From positions 1 through 23,679 of the forward strand of contig JBKHVI010000014.1 of NCBI GenBank assembly GCA_046570105.1: a stretch of DNA of 23,679 nucleotides, given 5' to 3'. Below the pieces are notes generated by a model, which was not told the origin of the DNA, did no database searches, and was given only the letters and a program-made list of their open reading frames with translations. This document shows, piece after piece, positions 2,207 to 22,011 of the stretch; within the stretch, counting starts at the first letter, position 1; each line of letters starts with the position of its first letter. A program made the translations under genes and the position numbers. This DNA is from Bacteriovoracia bacterium (GTDB lineage Bacteria > Bdellovibrionota > Bacteriovoracia > Bacteriovoracales > Bacteriovoracaceae).

Positions 2207-3348
2207 GCCAACACCTTGCGTGCTTGACGCTCTTCCTGGGGGAATTGATTTAAATCCATCTTCTCTGGCCAGATCTTTGCCAAAATCCAATCCAATTTAT
2301 GATTTCGCAAAACATCTTTTACCCAATCAAACTGCCACCAAGTCAGGGGTGGTCGTGTTAATTGCATGAGCCTTGCAAAATTCTCGTCTTGTATCAACTC
2401 ATCATCGCTGCGTTTATCAGCAAAATTCATTCCTGAAAGGTGTAAAATGATCTCGCGACGTTGACGCCAGAGCGTTGTCTCATGCTCCCCTTTCCCTGCG
2501 AGAGCTTGTAACAGATGCCAGCCTTCTCCAATGGTAAAAACGGCGGCCAAGAGTGCATTAGAATGTCCAAAGCCGGCCAGATTCTTGTTATAGATTTTCT
2601 CAAGCTTCAAGGGATCTAAGAGACCACCTTGAAATTTGGCCGGCAAAGTATGATGTCCTTGCAATTGATTCCAAAAGAGAAAAGGTGTGCCTGACTTGCG
2701 CGCTTCTTCACTGACATAAAATGGCGACAAATACGACAGATCCATTTGTTCAAGCAGCTCTGCTAACTCACTCGAAAATTGCAGCTGATACTTCATGGCA
2801 AACCGATGGGCCCGCAACAAGCGAACTGGATCTTTCATAAAGTGAGCGCGATCACAGGGCACTAGTACTTTTTGTTTGAGATGCTCTACCCCACCAAAAG
2901 GATCGACCAGCTCCCACGACTTGCCATTGAGTTTGGCGCCCAGAGCATTGAGGGTAAAATCACGTCGAATCGCAGCTTCAGGAAAACTGAGCTTCCAGTC
3001 ACTCTCGCTTTCAAACTCACCATGTCCAAAGGTGTCTTTCGCGGCATAAGTTTCACGGCGCGGAGGAGCGAATTGAAACTCCTGTCCACTTTTTTTAGCG
3101 CGCATAACTTGGTGTGATTCAGGATTAAGCTGATAGTCTTCGGCGAGTTCCTTCAAAAAACTCTTCCAGCGCGCTTGATTACCATTCGAATGTGAGAGTT
3201 CAAAATCCCAATCCAAAATGTCTGCCTGATTCATCAACAAATCACGAACAGCACCGCCTACTAATGTAACGGTGAAACCATGGCTATGTGATAAACGAAA
3301 AAACTCGGCCAGCTCACTTGGAATCAGTGTCTCAAGGCGCGAGAGCAT
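2191..3348 (-). CDS. cca: Class II tRNA nucleotidyltransferase (CCA/poly(A) polymerase family)
   Basis: LVGGAVRDLL..DWDFE, RRDFTLNAL, DPFGG, DPVRLLRAHRFA motifs; no obvious HD domain. Confidence 0.85.
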   Translation of the reverse strand: MLSRLETLIPSELAEFFRLSHSHGFTVTLVGGAVRDLLMNQADILDWDFELSHSNGNQARWKSFLKELAEDYQLNPESHQVMRAKKSGQEFQFAPPRRETYAAKDTFGHGEFESESDWKLSFPEAAIRRDFTLNALGAKLNGKSWELVDPFGGVEHLKQKVLVPCDRAHFMKDPVRLLRAHRFAMKYQLQFSSELAELLEQMDLSYLSPFYVSEEARKSGTPFLFWNQLQGHHTLPAKFQGGLLDPLKLEKIYNKNLAGFGHSNALLAAVFTIGEGWHLLQALAGKGEHETTLWRQRREIILHLSGMNFADKRSDDELIQDENFARLMQLTRPPLTWWQFDWVKDVLRNHKLDWILAKIWPEKMDLNQFPQEERQARKVLAWLRS

Positions 3349-4253
3349 TATTTCTTCCTGACCGCTTTGGCACCATCAAGCAGATGGGTATAAACACCTT
3401 TGATCTTCAAGCTGTCGGCTTCTTCCACGCGACAAGCAAAGCAGATGGTGTTGTTAAAGACTTCCGAGTCTTTGAGTGTTTTGACTTTGTCTTTATAGAA
3501 CGAGCGATTCAATACGTGAGTCGGCACCACCGCCATGCCTAGTCCTTCAGCAACGCCTGTTAAGAGCTGGCCGAAAGAGTTGACCACCAGGCGTGTTTTC
3601 ACCTGGCGAGGAAGAGCGCCGAAGTGCTCACGACACCAACGGAAAAAGAGCGGATCGTTTTCTTCGAACATCAATACGGGATACTCTAAAAGAGCTTTTA
3701 GATCCGTTTTATCAGTGATTTTAAAATTCTTATCATCTGGGAAAACCAGCACAGAGTGCTCTTCATTCAAGACCCACTTCTCTGCCCACGCTGGCACTTG
3801 ATAATCAGGTAGAATCAAACAGTCCACATCCCCGCGTTCAAAGCGACGAATGAGATTTTCAGGAAAATCCATACTGATTTTCACTTCGAGTTCTGGATGC
3901 TCGCCGAGATAATCAATAATTCGAGAACTAATCCAACTTTTCCCCAGGCCCGCAAGAGTGCCGACGTGCAAAGTCCCACGCACTTCCTTCGCCTCTTGGT
4001 GGATATGGTCAATGGTGTCTTCCACACGCTTGAGATACTGCTTAGCGACCTTAGCGAGCTTGCGCCCGGGTTCAGTCAATGTGACGTTTTTCCCGTGACG
4101 GGCCAAGAGCGAAAAACCTACGCGGCCTTCGAGGGTTTTAAGTGTCTGGGATACAGCGGATTGAGTCACCCCGAGGGTCTCAGCGGCCTTAGAAATACTG
4201 TCACTCTGTGAGAGCGCAATCAAAACTTGTAGATGGCTTGATTCGTATTTCAT
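3348..4253 (-). CDS. LysR family transcriptional regulator
   Basis: HTH SISKAAETLGVTQSAVSQTLKTLE, LTEPG, GTLHVG, substrate-binding domain with GLGMAVVP; 301 aa. Confidence 0.93.
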   Translation of the reverse strand: MKYESSHLQVLIALSQSDSISKAAETLGVTQSAVSQTLKTLEGRVGFSLLARHGKNVTLTEPGRKLAKVAKQYLKRVEDTIDHIHQEAKEVRGTLHVGTLAGLGKSWISSRIIDYLGEHPELEVKISMDFPENLIRRFERGDVDCLILPDYQVPAWAEKWVLNEEHSVLVFPDDKNFKITDKTDLKALLEYPVLMFEENDPLFFRWCREHFGALPRQVKTRLVVNSFGQLLTGVAEGLGMAVVPTHVLNRSFYKDKVKTLKDSEVFNNTICFACRVEEADSLKIKGVYTHLLDGAKAVRKK

Positions 4254-4266
4254 AAGTTTTTAATTC

Positions 4267-4424
4267 TTTTCAAGTAGACCATCTCATCCTGGCGCACAGA
4301 CTCGTAGAAAATTCAAAGTTTGTGCCAGGATGAATTAGTTAGAACACTAGAAATCTCAGGCGTCCTCTAATTCTGTCTTTTCAGAAACTGAATCCCCTTT
4401 CGGACTTTATGGTCTACTTGAAAA
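4267..4424. repeat. Structured intergenic element, copy 1 (16-bp perfect terminal inverted repeat, internal hairpin, conserved blocks A-D)
   Basis: TTTTCAAGTAGACCAT (4267-4282) / ATGGTCTACTTGAAAA (4409-4424); internal stem TCATCCTGGC (4284-4293) / GCCAGGATGA (4324-4333); blocks shared with 11226-11384. Confidence 0.9.
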
Positions 4425-4434
4425 TCAATTTAAT

Positions 4435-4470
4435 AAAAAAAAAGGGATCAGTTTTGCTGATCCCTTTTTT
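4435..4470 (-). terminator. Intrinsic (possibly bidirectional) terminator downstream of fusA
   Basis: AAAAAAAAAGGGATCAG-TTTTG-CTGATCCCTTTTTT: 8-bp stem flanked by A and T tracts, ~20 nt after the fusA stop. Confidence 0.9.
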
Positions 4471-4489
4471 CTTTAATTAGTTAACAAAT

Positions 4490-6670
4490 CTAGTCAGCAC
4501 GCTCGTTAAGCTTCTCTTTACGATCGTTCATGACTTTCTCTTGAACGTGGCTTGGGCATGGCTCGTACTTAGCGAATTCCATCGAGTAACCCGCTTTACC
4601 AGCTGTACCTGAACGCAACGTTGTTGAGTAACCGAACATTTCTGACAAAGGAACGTGAGCGTTAATAACAGCGTCACCACCTTCAGAAGTTTCTGAGCCC
4701 AAGATCACACCGCGACGTGAAGACAAGTCACCGATGACGAAACCTTGGTATTCTTGTGGAGTTTCAACTTCCACTTTCATGATCGGCTCAAGAAGAACTG
4801 GGTTAGCGCGCTTGATAGCATCTCTCATCGCCATACGAGCAGCGATACGGAACGCCATATCAGACGAGTCAACGTCGTGGTATTGGCCGTCTTGCAAGAA
4901 CGCTTCAACGCCGATCACTGGGAACGCCGCCAAAGGACCTTTGTTCATAACGTCGTTAAAGCCTTTGTCACACGAAGGAATAAATTCGTTCGGAATAACA
5001 CCACCCTTAATCTCGTTGGTGAACTTGTAAACTTGGTCTTCGCGCTCTTTGCGATCTTCTGCCAATGGCTTGATCTTACCGGCCACTTTAGCGAACTGAC
5101 CTGAACCACCGGTTTGCTTCTTGTGTGTGTATTCCAAAGTTGCTTCGCCACGAATAGTTTCGCGGTAGTTAACTTGAGGAGCACCGACTTCAACTTCAGC
5201 TTTGTACTCACGCTTTAGGCGCTCAGTATAAATCTCAAGGTGAAGCTCACCCATACCAGCGATACGTGTCTCACCTGATTCTTCATCAGTGAAAACGTGG
5301 AAAGTTGGGTCTTCTTTAAGGAAGCGCTGAAGGCCTTTGCCCATCTTCGCTTGCTGCTCTTTATCTTTCGCTTTAATTGAAAGCTCGATAACTGGTATTG
5401 GAATATGCATCCCTTCGCACGACAAGTGCTCAAGGTTCGAATCCTCACCGACGAAAGTATCACCCGAAGCACAGTCAACACCGATCATCGCGATGATGTC
5501 ACCAGCGATGGCGTAATCGATATTGTCACGGTCGTTTGAGTTCATACGAACGATTCGTCCTACACGAACGCGCTTCTTAGTACGAGTATTGATAAGAGTA
5601 TCACCCTTATTCAAAGTACCTTGATAAATACGAGTGTAAGTCAACTGACCGAATTGTTCGTCAGTGATCTTAAACGCCATACAAACAAGGCCCTTCTCAA
5701 AGTTTGGCTCAAGATCGATCTTTTGGTTGATCTTAGAGTCAATCGCTTTTGGCTTCTCACAAGTCACTGGACTTGGGAGGTAGCGAGCAACGGCGTTCAA
5801 AAGAAGTTGAACACCTTTGTTTTTGAAAGCTGAGCCCATGAATACTGGAGTCAATTTCAAAGACTGAGTCGCCTGGCGAATCACACGGTGAATAGTTTCA
5901 TCACTTACATCGCGGCCTTCAAGGATATCTTCCATCATGGCATCATCGAATGCAGAGATAGAATCGAGAAGAGCTTCGCGGTAGCTGCGAGCTTGCTCAA
6001 CGTAATCAGCAGGAATAGCTTCTTCGCGCACTTTCTCGCCGTTATCGCCGTCGAAGTAATAAGCTTTTTGAACGATCAAATCGATTACGCCAATGAAGTT
6101 TTCTTCAGCGCCGATAGGAATCTGCATAAGAACGGCGTTGTGGCCAAGTTTCTCACGAAGAGCTTTTGTTCCGTTGAAAGCGTTTGCTCCCATACGGTCC
6201 ATCTTATTCAAAAACGCCAAACGTGGAACACGGTAGCGCTTCATCTGACGGTCAACTGTGATTGATTGTGATTGAACACCAGCAACCGAACAAAGAACCA
6301 AGATCGCACCGTCAAGAACGCGCAATGAACGCTCAACTTCAACTGTGAAATCCACGTGTCCCGGAGTATCGATCAAGTTAACCTTGATGCTTTTGCCATC
6401 ACCTTCAGCGAAAGTTACACCAGTGTTATCCAAACCGCGCCACTCAACAGTGGTTGCAGCTGAAGTAATAGTGATACCCTTTTCACGCTCGAGTTCCATG
6501 TGATCCATGGTGGCACCAGCGCCGCCGCCTTTTACGTCTTCAATTTTATGAATTTTATCGCAGTAAAAAAGAATACGTTCAGACAAGGTCGTCTTACCTG
6601 AGTCAATGTGGGCCGAAATACCGATGTTACGGGTTTTAGGCAAATTCTTTTGGTCTAAACTAGCGCTCAT
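4490..6670 (-). CDS. fusA: Elongation factor G (EF-G1/spd-type paralogue, outside the str operon)
   Basis: [68 protein letters not shown]. Start set at ATG 6670 (GGGAG 5 nt upstream). Confidence 0.97.
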
Positions 6671-6726
6671 CATGTCTCCCAACGATAGAGGATTTACTTA
6701 CAGTCTTTAATGTTTTTATCGAGCGC

Positions 6727-6756
6727 ATCATAATGAAATCACGCCACATCCGTCAA
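6727..6756 (-). promoter_or_regulatory. Putative sigma70 promoter of fusA
   Basis: Minus strand TTGACG-N18-TATGAT followed by GC-rich GCGC discriminator-like sequence. Confidence 0.6.
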
Positions 6757-6827
6757 ACGCTTTTGACCTGTAAGTTTACGATTTTGCCTGTTGCGAAATG
6801 ATGAAGTCCGAAGCAATATAAGGGCCC

Positions 6828-7469
6828 ATGACATTTAAAAAAGACCTCGCTAAAGACGTCCTCTATCAAGGTGTTAAAACGCTGGTAGAGCATCCACACC
6901 CGCATATTCACCTCTCACAGCAGAAGCTTTTCACGCTATTCAGCCTGGCCTTCCAATATATTCTCTTTCGCTCGACCAAACAGCCCGGGCATTACATCCT
7001 GAGAATCGAAGATTCTTTCCTCGCTGACAAATTGGCGCGCAAGGCCAAAGACGAGACAACGCGTAAATTTCTCCAAAAATTACTCATTCCTCGTCGTCTG
7101 AACTATGGAAACGCCGTTTTTCACCTGGATTATTTCAATTTGAGCACCTGGAGTGTCACGAAGGATCTCCCTAAGGAGCGCATTCAGGGCGCCATCATCG
7201 TAAAAAACACCTCTCATAATCCTTTGATTGATGAGGGTGATTTCCGCCACGTTGATGCTGAGAACATGCAAAACGAAGCGGCTATGCAGCTTTTTGGTAA
7301 GAACTATTATCTCAACTCACTGATGGAGTTTTGTCCTCGTACCGTTACGATTGCTTTTGATGATAATTTTGAAGGTACAGAAAAACTCGCTTTCCCCTTC
7401 ATAACAGAAGAAGACGAGCGAACGGCAACAGGTGTGAAAATTTCTGATGATGTGGCCTGGGACGACTAG
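6828..7469 (+). CDS. Hypothetical protein
   Basis: 213-aa ORF filling the gap divergent from fusA; no recognisable motif. Confidence 0.7.
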   Translation: MTFKKDLAKDVLYQGVKTLVEHPHPHIHLSQQKLFTLFSLAFQYILFRSTKQPGHYILRIEDSFLADKLARKAKDETTRKFLQKLLIPRRLNYGNAVFHLDYFNLSTWSVTKDLPKERIQGAIIVKNTSHNPLIDEGDFRHVDAENMQNEAAMQLFGKNYYLNSLMEFCPRTVTIAFDDNFEGTEKLAFPFITEEDERTATGVKISDDVAWDD

Positions 7470-8245
7470 CCGCCAGTTTTCTTTCCTTCCAGCCACTCAC
7501 TATTTTTTGCATTCCCCTCACGATCCCACTCTTTCCAAGTGCCATGCTTGAGATCGTTTAGATAGCGTCCTTCCGAGCGCTTTTCTCCTGAACCAAAATA
7601 AAAAGTCCATGGACCCGTCTTAATGCCCTCTTGGTAATTACCCTCAGCAAGTAAACGTCCGTTGTCATAATAGTGGCGCCAAATGCCGATTCTCTTACCT
7701 TTCAAGACTTCTCCCTCGGCGGCAACTGTTCCATCCTCAAACGTGATGGAAATGTTGCCCTCTTTAACCGAGGTTTTTTCAAAGAACACATCTTGCGGCG
7801 GAAGATGCCACTGGAAACCTGCAATATGTTCTTCTTTTTGCAGCTTTCTCACTGTTCGCAGAACAAAATACTGGGCGGATTCCCGCTCAGCATTTGAGAC
7901 ATCTTTCAAGTAGGAGACTTCATCTTTGAGTTTGCCAAAAACACGGGGGAAAATAGCTGCAAAACTTTGAATGTCATCGCCATCTTTGAGAGGAAGCGCT
8001 TTGGCGATCACACCTAGCATGGCCTCATTGGTGCGCACGACAGTGTCGATCTCATCACTTGAGAGCTGCAAAAAATCGTTAAAAGTGCGGACATTCTTAG
8101 TCACCCAACGCATGAAGAGTGGATCTTCTAGAATCCCATTCATCAGAATCATTTGGCGCTGAGATGCCCCCGTCACTTCGATCGATTCGACGAAGTCTTT
8201 GAGTCCGTCCCACTGACGTTTTTTTATTCGATCTAACATGCTCAT
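7466..8245 (-). CDS. FliG C-terminal-like domain fused to MORN-2/YwqK-type beta-hairpin repeats
   Basis: C-terminal repeats GKRIGIWRHYYDNG, GIKTGPWTFYFGSG, KHGTWKEWDREG; N-terminal helical region (EDP..TFNDFLQL) resembles FliG-C-like proteins. Start probably ATG 8245. Confidence 0.7.
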   Translation of the reverse strand: MSMLDRIKKRQWDGLKDFVESIEVTGASQRQMILMNGILEDPLFMRWVTKNVRTFNDFLQLSSDEIDTVVRTNEAMLGVIAKALPLKDGDDIQSFAAIFPRVFGKLKDEVSYLKDVSNAERESAQYFVLRTVRKLQKEEHIAGFQWHLPPQDVFFEKTSVKEGNISITFEDGTVAAEGEVLKGKRIGIWRHYYDNGRLLAEGNYQEGIKTGPWTFYFGSGEKRSEGRYLNDLKHGTWKEWDREGNAKNSEWLEGKKTGG

Positions 8246-8378
8246 AGGTTTGTGATTATAGACCAGAAATCTAGTCCGCAACTTAAGATTAATAAGTATT
8301 GGTTTTTACAAAAGCTATCTCAAGAAATGTTGCGTTTTTCTTAATCAAATAGCGTGATTGGCGAGGATTTTTGACAGT

Positions 8379-8798
8379 TTACTTCTTCGCCTTGCTCGCC
8401 ACACTGATGATCTTTTTAAAAAGCTCGGCTTCTTGCCAGGGCTTCACGATGTAATCATCCACGCCCGCCTGCACGGCCTCGAGTACTTGGTTGATGTCGT
8501 TCATGGAAGAGATCATCAAAAGTGGGAGATGCTTGGTGGTGGCATCTCCGCGAATGAGTTTGGTGAGATCAATTCCTGAGCCCTCTTTCATCATCATATC
8601 GGCCATCACAAAATTGATCGGAGCAGCACTCGTTTGTAACCCTTTAATTGTGGCATAGGCCTCAGAGCCAGATTTAGCGAAAGTGATCTGAGTGACTCCA
8701 TAGGCTTTCATTTGGGCGGCCATAACAACTCGCATACTTTGAAAATCATCGACTAAGAGGAAATGCATTTTGGCAATTTCTGGTGGAAGTTTACTCAT
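8379..8798 (-). CDS. Single-domain response regulator (CheY-like)
   Basis: LLVDD, phosphoacceptor D in MADMMM, LPLLMISS, AGVDDYIVKPW. Confidence 0.9.
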   Translation of the reverse strand: MSKLPPEIAKMHFLLVDDFQSMRVVMAAQMKAYGVTQITFAKSGSEAYATIKGLQTSAAPINFVMADMMMKEGSGIDLTKLIRGDATTKHLPLLMISSMNDINQVLEAVQAGVDDYIVKPWQEAELFKKIISVASKAKK

Positions 8799-9217
8799 GC
8801 TCGCCTCTTCAAAATACCATCCACCATTTGTTGCATGTGCCGCGCGAACTCACTTTCGGTATGCTTGTCTTTGATAAAAGAATTCAGCAACTGGCCTAAT
8901 TCCGCCTTAGAATTGGAATTAAAAATATGCACTTTGAGCTGCTCAAGTTTAGTCGTCATTTCTTCAGAGATTTGCATATTGGCGGGCATATACAAGATAT
9001 GCAACAGACTCATCTCGGGAAAATTATAGGCACGTAAAAAGAAATTGGCGTAATTAGGATCTGAGAAAAAAGTTACGGCAAACTTTTGCTGCTGGCCGGT
9101 TTGTACAATCTCTACAGGATGATCAGTCTCCATGCAGAGAACACCCTTGGATTCCAAAAGCTTTTTGATTTCAGCGGTGGCCTCAGAGATTTCGCCCACA
9201 AAGAAAAAGAGTTTCAA
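8795..9217 (-). CDS. Hypothetical protein (possible degenerate receiver-like fold)
   Basis: 140 aa, TTG start with GAGG upstream, stop overlaps the CheY-like ATG; alternating beta/alpha pattern only. Confidence 0.6.
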   Translation of the reverse strand: MKLFFFVGEISEATAEIKKLLESKGVLCMETDHPVEIVQTGQQQKFAVTFFSDPNYANFFLRAYNFPEMSLLHILYMPANMQISEEMTTKLEQLKVHIFNSNSKAELGQLLNSFIKDKHTESEFARHMQQMVDGILKRRA

Positions 9218-9241
9218 TGACCTGTCCTCATAAATTTAAGC

Positions 9242-10387
9242 TTATGAGATTTTATCAAAAACTGGGCCCAATTGTGACAAAAGCTTCTGCTGCAATAAAG
9301 CGTCATGCAAAAGTCCAACTGAGAGCCTTAGTCCGTTCTTAGACCGTTTTTCTAGTCCCAATGCCTCTAAAACGTGGCTAGGCTTGGCCGCTCCGGAGCT
9401 ACAGGCCGCTCCAGCTGAGACTTCTAGACCCTTCAAATCAAAGAAGGGCAAAGAGAGATCTGAGGGAAGTTTATTCAAGACAAACAAAATTGTGTTCAGG
9501 TTCAAGTGCTGCGCTCGCTGAGAGATGCGAGTCCCCTTGCCTTGTAAGCGTTGGTCAAAATAAGTTCTGAGCTCTTCAATGAGTCTCTGTTGAGTATCAG
9601 GATTAAATTGCGCTTTCAATTCTTCAAGTGCCAACTGGAGAGCATGGGCCCCCATAACGTTTTCTGTACCTGAACGCATTCCCTTCTGCTGACCACCACC
9701 GATAATCAGTGGCTCGCCTGTCCAGGAAGTTTTAATGAAACTAAAACCATGCGATTTGAGTCCACCACATTTGTGAGAGGAGAAAGAGTAATAATCAAGT
9801 TCAGGTGAGAGTTGCCAGCAATCAGCAACTTTACCAATCGCTTGAGCGGCATCCACATGAATGAGGGCATTGGTTTTTTGTTTTAGAACTTCTGCCCATT
9901 TTAAAGGCCACACCACACCCGTCTCATTATGAACCCAAGTGAAGTTGATAAGAATGGAGTGGTCGGTATAGTTCGATAATAGATTAAGAGATTCTTCGAG
10001 ATTAAGATCGCCCTCGAGATCCACCACAAATTCAGCGGTCATCACACCCTGGGCACGCAAACGATCAGCTTGTTGTCTTACACAGGAGTGATCCAGTGGT
10101 GAATAGACAAATAGCAAAGGTTTTTTTGCTGATTGTTGCCAACTCCACACTGCGGAATTAATCGCTTCGGTCGCACCGGAGTGATAAACCAAATGGAAGT
10201 TTTTTTCGGAGAGCGAGAATGTTTTGTAGATTGACTGGTGGGCCTCATCTAGCGCGCGAGCGGCTTTTTTGCCCGAGCTGTGCTGAAAGGCAGGATTCGC
10301 CCAAAAAAAATCACCCTTGGTGAGCCAGCGAGTTACCGCTGGTGCCAAGGGTGTTGTTGCATTGTGATCTAGATAAATTCGATCCAA
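9242..10387 (-). CDS. iscS: Cysteine desulfurase (IscS/NifS, group I)
   Basis: YLDHNATTP, SGATEA, HNETG, HVDAAQAIGK, PLP Lys in SSHK, RSGTENV, catalytic Cys in SAGAACSSG. Confidence 0.92.
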   Translation of the reverse strand: MDRIYLDHNATTPLAPAVTRWLTKGDFFWANPAFQHSSGKKAARALDEAHQSIYKTFSLSEKNFHLVYHSGATEAINSAVWSWQQSAKKPLLFVYSPLDHSCVRQQADRLRAQGVMTAEFVVDLEGDLNLEESLNLLSNYTDHSILINFTWVHNETGVVWPLKWAEVLKQKTNALIHVDAAQAIGKVADCWQLSPELDYYSFSSHKCGGLKSHGFSFIKTSWTGEPLIIGGGQQKGMRSGTENVMGAHALQLALEELKAQFNPDTQQRLIEELRTYFDQRLQGKGTRISQRAQHLNLNTILFVLNKLPSDLSLPFFDLKGLEVSAGAACSSGAAKPSHVLEALGLEKRSKNGLRLSVGLLHDALLQQKLLSQLGPVFDKIS

Positions 10388-10924
10388 TTACTGATTCACT
10401 TCCCCAATGTTGTTACGGATAGCTGATCCGAAAGCATTCGAGGTGTTAGTGTTAGCAGCATTGGCTTCACGAGACTTGCGAGAAAGATCGCCCAACGTTG
10501 TTGTTGCGAGGTATTCCTGCATGATATTGCCCAAGTTTTCGAAGTAACCCTTAGTGAGGTGGAACTCAGAAGTATCAACGATGCCGTTGATGTCGTTGCC
10601 GCTTTCGTCCTTCATGATTTCGATACCAGAAGAAGGAATGCCAACGATGTCGCGAGCTGGGTTGATGTTCTCACCAACGCAATCAAGTACGTCTTTAACA
10701 GAGATTTCGTCCATTGAACGAGCTAGTACATATCCGCCGCCTGGGCCGCGAACCGACTTAACCACTTTACCTGTACGGAGCTTGCGGAAAAGCTGCTCGA
10801 GATAGTGGAGAGAAATTGACTGACGAGTAGAAATTTCCTGCAAGCGAACAGGATTACCACTGCTGTTGAACGTTAGGTCCAACATTGCACGAACTGCGTA
10901 ACGGCCTTTAGATGTAAGTCTCAT
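10388..10924 (-). CDS. Rrf2 family transcriptional regulator (IscR/CymR-like, lacking the Fe-S Cys triad)
   Basis: MRLTSKGRYAVRAMLDL, ISLHYLEQLFRKL, SVRGPGGGYVLAR; start ATG 10924 with GGAGG RBS; directly upstream of iscS. Confidence 0.92.
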   Translation of the reverse strand: MRLTSKGRYAVRAMLDLTFNSSGNPVRLQEISTRQSISLHYLEQLFRKLRTGKVVKSVRGPGGGYVLARSMDEISVKDVLDCVGENINPARDIVGIPSSGIEIMKDESGNDINGIVDTSEFHLTKGYFENLGNIMQEYLATTTLGDLSRKSREANAANTNTSNAFGSAIRNNIGEVNQ

Positions 10925-10998
10925 AGTCTTCCTCCATAAAGAAGCGGTTGGTGATTGTGAATCCGGGTTATCTTTCTTCCTTGATCCCGGGAGCATGC

Positions 10999-11030
10999 CT
11001 TTAGTTGACCATCCAAAGTCAGACTAAAAG
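10999..11030. promoter_or_regulatory. Putative Rrf2/IscR-type operator (imperfect palindrome)
   Basis: CTTTAGTTGAC-CATCCAAA-GTCAGACTAAAAG resembles IscR type-1 sites (..GTTGAC..GTCA..); lies just downstream of the predicted promoter. Confidence 0.55.
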
Positions 11031-11043
11031 TGTCTCGTAGAAT

Positions 11044-11073
11044 AGTATGACCCCCTGGAGTTTCCGCCGTCAA
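11044..11073 (-). promoter_or_regulatory. Putative sigma70 promoter of the Rrf2-iscS operon
   Basis: Minus strand TTGACG-N18-CATACT. Confidence 0.5.
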
Positions 11074-11225
11074 ATATAATTTCTGCCCCGACCATTAAAT
11101 ATTCTTGCAAGAAAAGTTATTGGAAAAACGTGAAGGATATCAATATATTTGCGCTGAATCGGCCTTGTGCGGTGTCAGTTTGCCCCTACGGCAATTTATT
11201 CCGACTAAGTCGGTTTTTTGAAAAT

Positions 11226-11384
11226 TCTCTAACTTTCAGGTCTCATCCTGGCGCATAGATCAGTTAAAAGAACAAAACTCATGCCAGGATGAACTGCAAT
11301 TTCTAGTAGAAATTTTAGGCGTCCTCTAAATGTTATCAGGAATTAAGGTGAGTTCTGCTTCGGACTTTACCTGAAAGTTTGAGA
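11226..11384. repeat. Structured intergenic element, copy 2
   Basis: TCTCTAACTTTCAGGT (11226-11241) / ACCTGAAAGTTTGAGA (11369-11384), 15 of 16 positions paired; same blocks A-D and spacer lengths as 4267-4424. Confidence 0.9.
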
Positions 11385-11402
11385 GGATATATATGGAAAA
11401 AC

Positions 11403-11858
11403 TCAATCATCAATCAAAGTCGACAGCGTGAAGTTGCGCGAAGGCGCCTCACCTTCTTGGGCGGGTTTGCCGAAGCTGAGCTCAAGAACGTAGGTCGCCC
11501 AATTTTCGGGAAGCTCACGAAACAAACGACGAGAAAATTTAGCGCCCCACTCGGCCAAGAAATATTGTTTATCTTCTAAGTAAACCGACAATTCTAAAGG
11601 GACGATCTCATCGGCGTTTTCAATGCGATAAAAATCACCATGTAGAATCTGGCCGCTCTCACTCAAAATCGAATAACTCGGGCTCAATGTTTCATCCGCG
11701 CCAATGAAGTGCTGGCAGAAAGTTGTTTTGCCCACTCCCAAGGGACCATCCAAAACAATCAAAGCTGGCGACTTGGTCAGCTCCTTCAACTCATAAACAA
11801 TATAAGGAAGATCACTGGTATAAACTTTCTTCCACTCGCGGATGAGCTTCTTACTCAT
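11403..11858 (-). CDS. tsaE: tRNA threonylcarbamoyladenosine biosynthesis ATPase TsaE
   Basis: Walker A GPLGVGKTT, SPSY, HGDFYRI, EWG; follows nnr as is typical. Confidence 0.9.
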   Translation of the reverse strand: MSKKLIREWKKVYTSDLPYIVYELKELTKSPALIVLDGPLGVGKTTFCQHFIGADETLSPSYSILSESGQILHGDFYRIENADEIVPLELSVYLEDKQYFLAEWGAKFSRRLFRELPENWATYVLELSFGKPAQEGEAPSRNFTLSTLIDD

Positions 11859-13444
11859 GCTTCACCATCAAGGCGGTTAAAGACCTCAGGCAATGTTTCA
11901 ATCAAACTCATAGCACTCATAGTGCGCACACCGAACTTCTCTGCCGCAAATTGACCAGCGAGGGTGTGAATATAGACACTCAAAAGTGTCGCCTGATTGG
12001 CATGCTCGTATCGATGCATAAGAGCATCTTGTTCACGACGAAGGCCTGTCTCTTGGGCCAAGAGCCCTCCAAGAATCCCAGCTAAAACGTCCCCTACTCC
12101 ACCCGTCGCCATACCATCGTTTGGCGAGAAGTTAAAATAGGTGCGGCCAGAAGCAAGACCTAAGTAAGTACAAGGACCTTTTAAAAGAATGGTGCAGTTG
12201 ATGCGCTCAACCGCCTGGCGAAGTGATTCATAAGGACGGATCTCAACTTCTGATTGCTCCATGTCGCAAAAGCGGGCGAACTCTCCAAAGTGCGGCGTCA
12301 ACACTGTCGGTGCATGACGCATACTAAAGACCTGGTGATCCTCTTTCAGATTAAGTGCATTGATAGCATCCGCATCCAGCACCAAAGGCCCTGAGAAATT
12401 GTTCATAATCTCTAAGACTAAGCGACGCGCGCGCGCTGAGCGACCAAGACCAGGACCAATAACTAAAGAACTATATTTATCTAGGCTCTTTAAAACCTTG
12501 GGCCACTTTGATTGATCATTGGGAATAAAGCCTGTCATCACTTCAGGAATGAGTCTTGACACCATCTCTTGGTGTTGTGGCTCCCAAGTTGCGACTGTAA
12601 CAAGTCCTGAGCCTGCTTTCAGAGCGGCCATACCGGCCATAGCAGCGGCACCGGTGAGGCCATGAGAGCCACCGACCACGAGTGTGTGACCGAAGATTTT
12701 TTTATCAGCAAACTTGCTTCGTGCATCGCTTTGATAAGGAATATTTTGACGAGTCAAAAGAAATTTATCAGCTTTCTCCATCACAAGTTGCGGTGGAAAA
12801 CCCACTGGCAATACTTTGAGTTCACCTGAGAGACGAGCACCATCGGCGACATAGTGACCGACCTTGGGGAAACCAATCGCCAACGTCATATCTGCTTTAA
12901 TCGCATTGCCTTGGGCAAGGCCGGTGTCACCTGAAATCCCTGTTGGGATATCCAGTGCCACGGTGTAGTTGGAGTTTTCATTCACAAAATTGATCACATC
13001 ATAAATGAAATGTGACAAAGGCAAGCGCACACCCGTGCCAAAGATGGCATCCACGACTAATTTCGGTAGAGGATTTTGGGCGAAATAGCTCTCAAGACCG
13101 TTGAGATCTTTAATATGGTTAACCTTAACTCCGAAAGCGCGCGCCATTTTGAGTTGCGTTTGATTTTCCGGCGAACATTCTTTTTCATCAAACAGCATAA
13201 AGGCGCGAACACTGCGTCCAGGACGCATTAAATGACGAGCAAGAGAAAAACCATCAGCACCGTTATTGCCTTTGCCGATTAGCAAAACCACATCGAGTTC
13301 GGCATCAAATGCTTTGATTCGCTCTTCTAAAACCTGAGCACCCACGAGGCCCACGTTTTCCACGATTAGATGTTCGTTAAAAAAATGCTTCTCGGCCGCA
13401 AGCGTTTCAATTTCTTTCATCTCTTTTTGGGTCACGATACGCAT
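11855..13444 (-). CDS. nnr: Bifunctional NAD(P)HX epimerase/dehydratase (YjeF/Nnr)
   Basis: GKGNNGADG, DAIFGTG, DIPTG, GPGLG, VLDADA, TPHFGEF, LLKG, ATGGVGDVLAG. Confidence 0.95.
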   Translation of the reverse strand: MRIVTQKEMKEIETLAAEKHFFNEHLIVENVGLVGAQVLEERIKAFDAELDVVLLIGKGNNGADGFSLARHLMRPGRSVRAFMLFDEKECSPENQTQLKMARAFGVKVNHIKDLNGLESYFAQNPLPKLVVDAIFGTGVRLPLSHFIYDVINFVNENSNYTVALDIPTGISGDTGLAQGNAIKADMTLAIGFPKVGHYVADGARLSGELKVLPVGFPPQLVMEKADKFLLTRQNIPYQSDARSKFADKKIFGHTLVVGGSHGLTGAAAMAGMAALKAGSGLVTVATWEPQHQEMVSRLIPEVMTGFIPNDQSKWPKVLKSLDKYSSLVIGPGLGRSARARRLVLEIMNNFSGPLVLDADAINALNLKEDHQVFSMRHAPTVLTPHFGEFARFCDMEQSEVEIRPYESLRQAVERINCTILLKGPCTYLGLASGRTYFNFSPNDGMATGGVGDVLAGILGGLLAQETGLRREQDALMHRYEHANQATLLSVYIHTLAGQFAAEKFGVRTMSAMSLIETLPEVFNRLDGEA

Positions 13445-20314: not shown

Positions 20315-21271
20315 ATGATGAAATACTTACTTCTTCTCTTTTTATTCTCCTGCGCTGCGCAGATTAGGCCTGAAACAGGGTCAGAAGCTCCTGTCGCGAT
20401 AGTAGAAGTTGCGACTGAAGCTCCGCCCACGCCTCAACCCAAACCGACTCTCACTCCGGCACTCACCTCGTGGTGCGAGCGCACTGACAAAGAATTTACC
20501 CGCTATAACTGGGGCAAGAGTCGCTGCGATGAATTTAATTGGTCTCATGTGCGCAACTCTGTTGATGGCCATCCCATCGCTTGGATGGTGTTTGGCGATG
20601 AGACCACATTAGAAAATAAAAATGTCACTTTGATTATGTGTGGCGTTCACGGCGATGAAATTACACCGATAAAATTTTGCTACGACATACTTTATGATCT
20701 CAAAGACTTCCATTGGGATTTCTCTGAGCGAGTTGTGGTCGTCGCTCCCATCGTTAGCCCCGATTCATTTTTTAAGGCGCGCCCCACTCGCACCAATTCC
20801 CGCGGAGTGGACGTCAACCGTAACTTCCCAACTAAAGACTGGAGTGCGGATGCCATTCGTTTGTGGACGCAGCGACATGGTAAAGACAAGCGCCGCTTTC
20901 CAGGAAAAAGAGCATTGAGTGAACCGGAAGTCGTTTTTCAGGTGAATCTCATCAAGCGCTATAACCCCGCCAAGATTATCTCGGTGCACTCACCGCTTAT
21001 GATGTTGGATTATGATGGACCGGATTTAACCCATAAAGAGACAGGGCCTGCTAAGGATCTTTTACTTTCCATGTCGGAGAAGGCGAGCGGCTACAAAGTC
21101 TCAAACTACCCTCACTTCCCAGGTAGCTTGGGCAATTGGGCCGGACAAGAATTAGGTATTCCCACCTATACTTTAGAACTTCCCAACTCTGACCCCCATC
21201 AGAGCACCAAATACTGGCGCCAATTTCGCGAGGCAATTCATCACGCGATCGAACAGAAAGTTGGACCTTAA
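20315..21271 (+). CDS. M14 zinc carboxypeptidase lipoprotein, murein peptide amidase MpaA-like
   Basis: Lipobox LFSC, Pro-rich linker, GVHGDE, RTNSRGVDVNRNFP, SEPE, ISVHSP, PGSLGNW, TLELP. Confidence 0.88.
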   Translation: MMKYLLLLFLFSCAAQIRPETGSEAPVAIVEVATEAPPTPQPKPTLTPALTSWCERTDKEFTRYNWGKSRCDEFNWSHVRNSVDGHPIAWMVFGDETTLENKNVTLIMCGVHGDEITPIKFCYDILYDLKDFHWDFSERVVVVAPIVSPDSFFKARPTRTNSRGVDVNRNFPTKDWSADAIRLWTQRHGKDKRRFPGKRALSEPEVVFQVNLIKRYNPAKIISVHSPLMMLDYDGPDLTHKETGPAKDLLLSMSEKASGYKVSNYPHFPGSLGNWAGQELGIPTYTLELPNSDPHQSTKYWRQFREAIHHAIEQKVGP

Positions 21272-21885
21272 GTCAGAACCTTGTTTATCATCCATCCCTT
21301 CGGCCGATCTAGATAGATCAATTCATTCATTCGTCTAAATATCACTGTCATTTTCTTCTCCTTTGCCAACTTCTTTAAATCCCGCACGACTCCTAATGAT
21401 GAGTACCCGTCGACATATGCCCATTTCATTCCAGAGTGCTTTTGCTCGTTGAATAAGACGTAATGAACGGCATTTCGTGTTTCTCTTATGGAACGCAAAA
21501 CATGCAAATGATAGCGCCCCAGTTGCACCCGTCCTTTTCTCAAACCTTTAGCGATCGTCACCGTGAGGGAGCGCATGCCGCGAGTTAGGGTGGCATTGTC
21601 CTGCGCTTCAAGAATCAAATGAATGTGATTTGACTGTAACGAATAATGAATCACTCTGAGTCCCATCTTACGGGCATTGAGAATCGCCCTTTTCAAAAGA
21701 CTGAGTCCCTTTTTGTGGCGAATCATTGTGCGGTATTTGAAATTCACATGCATCGCATGTTTCATTACAACCTTCTCACGCTTGCGATGGGCGACGCCTT
21801 TGGAATGAATACGCTTTCTACCGGCCCCAGGTCTTCTGCCACCGCGTGATCCTTTGTAGAGATTGAGTTTCATTTGTTTTGCCAT
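21268..21885 (-). mobile_element. HUH (Y1) tyrosine transposase, RAYT/IS200-like
   Basis: HUH motif SNHIHLILEA, candidate catalytic Tyr in AVHYVLFN, RYH upstream, basic N-terminal RGGRRPGAGRK arm; GGAGG RBS favours the ATG at 21885. Confidence 0.85.
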
Positions 21886-21903
21886 CATGCCTCCGATTGA
21901 AAA

Positions 21904-22011
21904 AGGCATATGTCGCTCATCCTACAGATGATTGAAGAGGAGTATGTGCGAGGAAATGAGCTTTGTTTCTGATATGGAGCGAGAATGCCTAAATTTTAGA
22001 CACCATACTAA
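21904..22011. repeat. Hairpin-rich region upstream of the HUH transposase with degenerate similarity to the intergenic element
   Basis: CTCATCCT (21916-21923), TGTGCGAGGA (21945-21954), AAATTTTAGACACC..CTAA (21991-22011) in the same order as blocks A, B, C; imperfect inverted repeat AGGCAT..TCGCTC / GAGCGA..ATGCCT. Confidence 0.5.

Follow-up and report, generated by a model that had tools for sequence, protein, structure and literature searches.

Small structured repeats are common in bacteria, and whether or not they are junk is rarely clear. As characterized in PMC3184786, on which the comparisons below also draw, bacterial MITEs combine inverted ends, flanking direct repeats, stable folds and sites that are filled in some genomes and empty in others. 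In the same source, bcr1 of the Bacillus cereus group is a transcribed element of ~155 bp flanked by constant 5-bp direct repeats, with a cruciform-like predicted fold that comprises two independent stem-loops and is kept by compensatory changes; Chunjie of Geobacter measures 178-235 bp, with 21-bp terminal inverted repeats (TIRs) and 9-bp direct repeats; Nezha is a cyanobacterial MITE; and REP elements are hairpin-forming intergenic repeats enriched between convergent genes (PMC3184786).

The repeat family described here, from a Bacteriovoracia bacterium, resembles bcr1 as portrayed there (PMC3184786) in size (~155-165 bp), in being non-coding, in its patchy occurrence between close strains and in its short flanking direct repeats, and it likewise possesses an outer stem and two stem-loops with compensatory changes. 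It differs in the host phylum, which is unrelated, and in the direct repeats, which span 5-15 bp as opposed to the constant 5 bp reported for bcr1. In kind, bcr1 is the closest known system. With Chunjie and Nezha, as PMC3184786 describes them, the family shares TIRs, target duplications, stable folds and filled and empty sites in related genomes; the TIRs of those two elements, however, match known IS, whereas no partner was found for the present element. Several features of a bacterial MITE are found, namely small non-coding size, TIRs, target-site duplication, filled and empty sites and many dispersed copies, but the family departs from a classic MITE in that its interior is better conserved than its ends and the length of its duplication varies. 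Literature searches on repetitive intergenic elements of Bacteriovorax and on MITEs of Bdellovibrio yielded no description of such a family; we regard it as a new, structured, MITE-like one, of a kind already known.

Two copies of the element in the window

The window, that is, the whole stretch of 23,679 nucleotides that was analysed, is contig C14 (JBKHVI010000014.1) of genome G000, a 3.02-Mb assembly of 131 contigs (GCA_046570105.1) with 44.6% G+C. It carries two copies of the element on the forward strand, the parts of which, with three helices designated P1, P2 and P4, are as follows.

4259..4263, unstranded: left TTTAA, 5-nt target-site duplication of copy 1 (joint 4258>4429 in X7)
4264..4428, + strand: element copy 1 (covariance model R1 match 4266-4426, E 7.8e-30)
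4264..4282, + strand: copy 1, P1 left arm, terminal inverted repeat (perfect 16 nt, 4267-4282)
4284..4293, + strand: copy 1, P2 5' arm TCATCCTGGC, within block A (sequence and fold alignment)
4324..4333, + strand: copy 1, P2 3' arm GCCAGGATGA, within block B (sequence and fold alignment)
4362..4365, + strand: copy 1, P4 5' arm GTCC, within block C (sequence and fold alignment)
4402..4405, + strand: copy 1, P4 3' arm GGAC, within block D (sequence and fold alignment)
4409..4427, + strand: copy 1, P1 right arm (perfect 16 nt, 4409-4424)
4429..4433, unstranded: right TTTAA, 5-nt target-site duplication of copy 1 (X7 joint)
11225..11386, + strand: element copy 2 (model R1 match 11225-11386, E 2.4e-30)
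11225..11241, + strand: copy 2, P1 left arm (sequence)
11243..11252, + strand: copy 2, P2 5' arm (sequence and fold alignment)
11283..11292, + strand: copy 2, P2 3' arm (sequence and fold alignment)
11321..11324, + strand: copy 2, P4 5' arm GTCC (sequence and fold alignment)
11362..11365, + strand: copy 2, P4 3' arm GGAC (sequence and fold alignment)
11369..11385, + strand: copy 2, P1 right arm (sequence)

An initial sequence-only reading of the two copies had described blocks A (4282-4296 and 11241-11255), B (4323-4334 and 11282-11293) and D (4399-4409 and 11359-11369) as identical between them and block C as identical at 21 of 23 positions, with intervening spacers of 26/26, 13/13 and 28/29 nt, a 10-bp stem between A and B and a pairing of GTCC with GGAC; all of this is borne out. 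What that description did not contain is the outer inverted repeat that closes both copies and that differs in sequence between copy 1 and copy 2 while its complementarity is retained. The body of copy 1 sits between two copies of the target TTTAA.

Two observations concern the surroundings of these copies. Positions 4436-4472, in the gap that separates copy 1 from the end of the EF-G gene, comprise an A-run, a GC-rich hairpin and a T-run, with the look of a bidirectional intrinsic terminator; the same terminator-like hairpin is present in relatives without the element, so copy 1 was inserted beside it. At copy 2, a contig of run X4 matches the window up to 11241 and again from 11400, with 79 other letters in place of 11242-11399, and hence, in some strain, these flanks enclose a body that is different or shorter.

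Conserved blocks and variable spacers across the family

The search of the genome with the blocks and a covariance model that the sequence-only reading had proposed as a check uncovered a sizeable family. Block A alone occurs exactly 20 times in the G000 genome, nhmmer with a profile from 28 copies retrieves 31 full-length copies (E 8e-44 to 5e-22) and five weaker partial ones, and covariance model R1 yields 35 matches; the recurrence of the blocks and the size of the family far exceed chance. The copies are 160-166 bp long in this genome, and their pairwise identity is low (median 0.59, maximum 0.82). Over the 31 copies, mean column identity is 0.96 for block A, 0.94 for B, 0.78 for C and 0.83 for D, against 0.47-0.56 for the spacers, the lengths of which fall within 25-27 nt (26 in 24 of the 31), 12-14 nt and 24-29 nt. 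Thus, of the claim that the spacers are locked in length, the narrow range stands across the family and a strictly fixed length does not; random spacer lengths combined with uniform divergence, the pattern that further copies had been expected to display if that reading was wrong, are the contrary of what the 31 copies display. Given their variability, the spacers leave no room for a conserved reading frame, and the element, with the size of a MITE, is non-coding. It had not been recognized, from the sequence alone, as a known riboswitch, ribozyme, attC site or GTAG-type REP, and it matches no Rfam family: there is no match in the window at the gathering score and, when 20 copies were searched by E-value, the best matches were of E 0.12 and 0.58, far below gathering. 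An isolated second right-arm sequence, ACGGTCGAATTTGA, lies just upstream of one copy (C6:3660-3700 in G000, and locus L053 in the sister species G007), and may be left over from an adjacent or nested copy.

Conserved blocks set apart by variable stretches that hardly differ in length could also suggest a scaffold with spacers that serve as exchangeable guides, in the manner of guide or bridge RNAs, a possibility that had been raised from the two window copies. This reading now seems barely credible: the longest exact matches of 93 spacers in the masked genome are 11-17 nt, which is the range of 465 shuffled spacers, so that the spacers match the remaining genome no better than shuffled ones; no match was found among phages, plasmids and viral contigs; the neighbours of the copies include no adjoining recombinase or nuclease gene; and the spacers of orthologous copies drift, at 17% of positions.

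A three-helix fold maintained by compensatory changes

RNAalifold, applied to the 31 copies, predicts three helices, namely an outer stem of 14 bp (P1) that encloses two hairpins, P2, a hairpin of 9-11 bp formed by blocks A and B, and P4, a 4-bp helix of GTCC in block C with GGAC in block D. In the trimmed alignment, pairing is intact in 94.8% of 897 cells and both sides have changed in 18 of 29 pairs, with compensatory changes in all three helices; none of 500 shuffles attains any of these measures, and when the partners are slid by 1-3 columns, only 29-47% of the cells are paired. P1, at least 14 bp long, has 91.7% of its cells paired, as befits the terminal inverted repeat of a bacterial MITE. 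Variation in P2 is rare and matched (CC/GG to TC/GA or AA/TT), as it is in P4 (GTCC/GGAC to GCCC/GGGC, GCCT/AGGC, GCTC/GAGC or GTCT/AGAC), although some of the changes in P2 and P4 are inherited within one five-copy subfamily and accordingly represent fewer events than cells. The proposal of a scaffold of constrained geometry is thus upheld in the form of conserved blocks within a conserved fold, the pairing of which is maintained by compensatory change.

The mean folding energy is -55.7 kcal/mol on either strand (z -6.4 and -5.7), and the mismatch-type cells of P1, counted from the alignment table, comprise 13 of the G-U type and 13 of the A-C type, with no G-U bias. Neither folding nor the balance of G-U and A-C cells prefers a strand, and readings at the level of RNA and of DNA both fit. 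Template switching at quasi-palindromes can yield compensatory changes in DNA inverted repeats without selection. Hairpins within the spacers are visible in some copies and have no family-wide support when the 31 copies are folded against shuffles (mean z -0.43 and -0.42, with z < -1 in 7 and 5 of the 31 copies), and most copies could form an alternative to P4, a competing hairpin within block C (CTTGAGG/CCTCAAG) that shows little covariation.

Insertion, target duplication and empty sites

That the element is mobile DNA is well supported by comparison of filled and empty sites. For copy 1, an 89.6-kb contig of run X7, from a close strain, is colinear with window positions 3000-12500 and skips exactly 4259-4428, where TTTAA fits either side of the joint, and in 8 of 10 relatives in the genus the site is empty, the LysR-type and EF-G genes adjoining without the element. 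Direct repeats of at least 10 bp flank 5 of the 31 copies, as compared to none of 930 pairings of flanks taken from different copies, and for all five repeat-flanked copies some relative has an element-free orthologous site with a single copy of the repeat.

C44: relative's orthologous site, element-free, single repeat of 12 bp
C49: relative's orthologous site, element-free, single repeat of 13 bp
C1:32529: relative's orthologous site, element-free, single repeat of 10 bp
C1:104438: relative's orthologous site, element-free, single repeat of 15 bp, one mismatch
C38: relative's site, element-free, single repeat of 10 bp, 28-nt arm remnant 9 nt away

Together with copy 1, six duplications in G000 (5, 10, 10, 12, 13 and 15 bp) have each been checked against an element-free site in a relative. 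Insertion takes place in intergenic DNA at the 3' ends of genes, with duplication of 5-15 bp of target, and the suggestion that the element could be the substrate of a recombinase is vindicated to the extent that target duplication on insertion marks it as the substrate of some recombination or transposition enzyme. The sequence-only reading had, on the other hand, set the element apart from MITEs, and this contrast has to be abandoned, given that TIRs, target-site duplications, filled and empty sites and a patchy distribution are hallmarks of MITEs. Opposite G000 C38:14824, contig C349 of G007 (L111, ~2350-2400) has no element at that point and carries, 9 nt off, 28 nt of an element arm, either the footprint of an excision, perhaps, or the decayed trace of a second insertion in a hot spot.

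Insertions of different ages appear to be represented. Copy 2, an older insertion, has counterparts at its site in the sister species (G007:C132) and in the X7 strain. Seven other relatives of the genus yielded no element at the orthologous place, and for two of them, G006 and G010, the alignment shows an empty site. At the other extreme, five copies in genome G041 are 92-100% identical over 189-191 nt, suggestive of a recent burst, and four of them, when aligned, share the exact ends TTAACTGACCC...GGGTCAGTTC, with inverted ends of 23 nt and flanking repeats of 9-10 bp. At ~237 bp, this is the longest form of the element, and with its 23-nt TIR and 9-10-bp duplication it closely fits classic MITEs such as Chunjie and Nezha as these are described in PMC3184786. 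Longer outer arms are also present in many copies of G003, G006 and G007, the G000 copies being the shorter form. Among copies with intact duplications the tips have no common terminal sequence, and in copies a few extra bases lie between the duplication and the stem. The combination of variable tips, a conserved interior and variable duplication length leaves room for recognition through internal hairpins.

The search for the mobilizing enzyme

An autonomous partner with matching ends was found in none of the carriers, all of which are draft MAGs, and neither PF01609 (DDE_Tnp_1) nor the reverse transcriptase family RVT_1 is present in G000. Several candidates were considered and rejected: the two rve-type transposase genes of G000 have unrelated surroundings and no matching ends, and their relatives do not track the element; an IS5-like gene near a G007 copy is bounded by inverted repeats of its own that are unrelated to the element; and no element ends lie close to a weak rve-like gene of G041. 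The second of these belongs to a small IS5-type IS (L168:1459-2353, G007 C238) that encodes a 250-aa DDE_Tnp_1 transposase and lies 226 nt from the element copy. A left and a right half of the element on the same strand of G041 contig C16 (L167:960-1060 and 7950-8060) are 6.9 kb apart, with eight ordinary-looking genes between them; these halves were dismissed as an autonomous parent, the enclosed genes being an FMN reductase, a GNAT protein, a hydrolase and unknowns, with no transposase, and could be either a split copy or a captured block of genes.

The remaining candidate is a family of Y1_Tnp-like genes of ~210 aa with an HUH-like motif, which has nine dispersed loci in G000 that are 60-92% identical, one of them within the window.

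21268..21909, - strand: 213-aa Y1_Tnp/RAYT-like gene (PF01797 23.4 bits; REP-associated tyrosine transposase model 19.6 bits)

These genes score 19.6-20.5 bits against the NCBIfam model of REP-associated tyrosine transposases, far below its cut-off of 80. The paralogues share the gene and ~35 nt upstream only. In the genus, the family is patchy, being present in 5 of 11 genomes, namely all four carriers of the element and one of the seven non-carriers (G008). A P1+P2-only copy of the element, 85-109 nt long, lies over the stop codon of one Y1-like paralogue, on the opposite strand and at the same place in G000 (L077:1954-2038, C33) and G007 (L082:1231-1339, C362).

These genes bring up the possibility that the element is REPIN-like, moved as folded single-stranded DNA by HUH tyrosine (RAYT-like) proteins for which P2 would serve as the REP-like recognition site. 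The element is indeed hairpin-forming, intergenic and enriched between convergent genes, as REP elements are according to PMC3184786, and there are RAYT-like genes in the genome. The presence of nine loci with an HUH-like motif and a weak match to the REP-associated model, the distribution of the genes over carriers and non-carriers in the genus, the truncated copy at one paralogue in two species, the conserved interior hairpins with variable tips and the equal folding of both strands would all be accommodated. Yet the element is a branched unit of three helices and ~165 nt, not a GC-rich palindrome or doublet of 20-40 nt; the G+C content is 37-49% among the matches listed, whereas REPs are short GC-rich palindromes that have a conserved 5' tetranucleotide and occur single or in inverted doublets. 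The co-occurrence with the genes, seen in 5 of 7 carriers, fails in the other two, G041, which has the youngest copies, and G043, neither of which has a member of the Y1-like family at E 1e-5 and the latter of which has no PF01797 match whatsoever. No hairpins flank the Y1-like paralogues, the C72 paralogue, 92% identical, has no adjoining copy of the element, and the model score is far under the cut-off. Finally, the element duplicates 5-15 bp of its target, and target duplication is not a known outcome of HUH Y1 transposition. The link of the element to the RAYT-like gene family is accordingly weak, and a REPIN-like nature of the element is quite improbable.

Distribution and genomic placement

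Model R1 has matches in 4 of 11 genomes of the genus (G000, G007, G006 and G003, with 35, 19, 11 and 5 matches, respectively) and in none of 30 genomes sampled from other genera, families and the phylum. An exact-pattern scan of bacteria and archaea, with one genome per species, detected 28 loci in six assemblies (MAGs), all of them labelled Bacteriovoracaceae, Bacteriovoracia or Halobacteriovoraceae, and three of the six are further carriers, with 6, 4 and 6 model matches. In the metagenome collection, the element is present at 26 of 28 pattern loci and is not found at the other two, L202 and L207. One of these, L202:2500-2555, on an unrelated AT-rich metagenome contig, is a lone hairpin with the P2 stem TCATTCTGGCGCA...GCCAGAATGA in which the rest of the element is absent. 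Neither BLAST searches of phages and plasmids nor a pattern scan of viral contigs returned the element.

Most copies are situated between convergent genes, in either orientation. Counting copies with two neighbours (n=29), with genes from a crude ORF caller, convergent gene pairs hold 19 of the 29 against a genome share of 18.1% (binomial p 2e-8), divergent pairs hold none against a share of 16.5% (p 0.005), and the ten copies between tandem neighbours comprise four in sense and six in antisense orientation. Many copies, copy 1 included, start a few bases from a stop codon or beside an intrinsic terminator; the flanks of the copies contain no common promoter or terminator.

Constraint on resident copies

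Comparison of G000 with its sister species allows one to ask how copies evolve once they have landed. By their flanks, eight of 18 G007 copies are located at the site of a G000 copy, four at a site that is empty in G000, and six are unplaced. In the five orthologous pairs in which both copies are intact, 6 of 250 positions differ in blocks A, B and D and the core of C (2.4%), compared to 56 of 327 in the three spacers (17%; Fisher p 1.6e-9), a contrast that may be inflated by a bias toward conserved blocks, these pairs being among the best-scoring copies; we judge this bias too small to yield 2.4% against 17%. In P1, 14 of 140 positions differ, such that five pairs have changed on both sides and are still paired, two have one-sided changes and four contain a non-pair. 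In the genes that adjoin these pairs, the differences amount to 3.3%, 1.3% and 23.9% at first, second and third codon positions, respectively, so that constraint on the blocks is about that on the first two codon positions, with spacers that are near neutral. The argument that uniform neutral decay does not suffice to explain the pattern is thereby confirmed, with blocks that change 7 times more slowly than spacers in orthologous copies.

Selection for transposition cannot keep intact a copy that is already in place, and hence the constraint on the blocks points to a role in the host. From this comparison, selection on the core blocks after insertion appears well supported, and biased repair is less likely to be the cause of their conservation. 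Not all resident copies are kept, however: in three of the eight orthologous pairs, one or both species have a degenerate or truncated copy. In one of these, blocks C and D are lost in G000; in another, a solo P2 hairpin is present in both species; and in the third, P4 is broken in both species, blocks C and D are identical, and P2 has a compensatory change.

Constraint of this kind might suggest that the family is primarily one of functional structured RNAs, either small RNAs or 3'-UTR modules, with mobility being incidental. The compensatory changes in three helices and those between orthologous copies, including one in P2 of the C3 pair, together with block constraint at the level of the first two codon positions, are what such an RNA family would be expected to display, and the closest analogue, bcr1, is reported as transcribed (PMC3184786). 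Against these stand the lack of a strand signal, with -55.7 kcal/mol on both strands and 13 versus 13 cells in P1, the occurrence of tandem copies in both sense and antisense, the absence of a promoter or terminator common to the flanks and of a match in Rfam, and the outcome of the screen of RNA runs for the locus, in which no run contains it and a single one shares 5% of its words. Taking both sides together, we regard a primarily RNA-level identity of the family as decidedly unlikely.

Probable movement and proposed retention of the element

The scenario that best accommodates all these observations, and that we consider probable, is that of a non-autonomous, non-coding, structured, MITE-like mobile repeat that is retained by the host after insertion. 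The element, ~165 bp here and ~237 bp in its longest form elsewhere, has spread within a lineage of Bacteriovoracaceae. An enzyme supplied in trans would recognize it by its conserved subterminal hairpin blocks, with the variable tips playing no part, and would insert it through staggered cuts in AT-rich sequence next to terminators. The host would then keep resident copies, the folded three-way junction acting at convergent gene ends in either orientation. Most plausibly, such a junction would function within the 3' untranslated RNA of both neighbours, as a barrier to degradation or read-through, or else as a site for a protein that binds hairpin DNA.

Several observations speak against this scenario: no carrier yielded an autonomous partner, the interior is better conserved than the terminal repeats, some resident copies have decayed, and duplications of 5-15 bp and unconserved tips are unusual for a single DDE transposase. 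It is conceivable instead, albeit unlikely, that the element is a module recognized through its internal hairpins, that an enzyme outside the DDE class, perhaps of the multi-copy RAYT-like HUH family, mobilizes it in single-stranded DNA form or by way of an RNA copy, and that the host then retains it for a sequence-specific role at convergent ends. If true, recognition of internal hairpins by a non-DDE enzyme would explain both the ragged ends and the 5-15-bp duplications.

Returning to the MITE-like mobile repeat retained by its host, it is precisely the departure of the family from the textbook MITE that makes it a good case for questions of recognition and movement. For a class of repeats in which function and junk are seldom told apart, the family offers the advantage of insertions that two species have in common and that lend themselves to comparison, and the slow blocks set against drifting spacers argue that the copies act after landing. 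Furthermore, in a group of predatory bacteria that is uncultured, copies of the element provide insertion markers at the level of strains.
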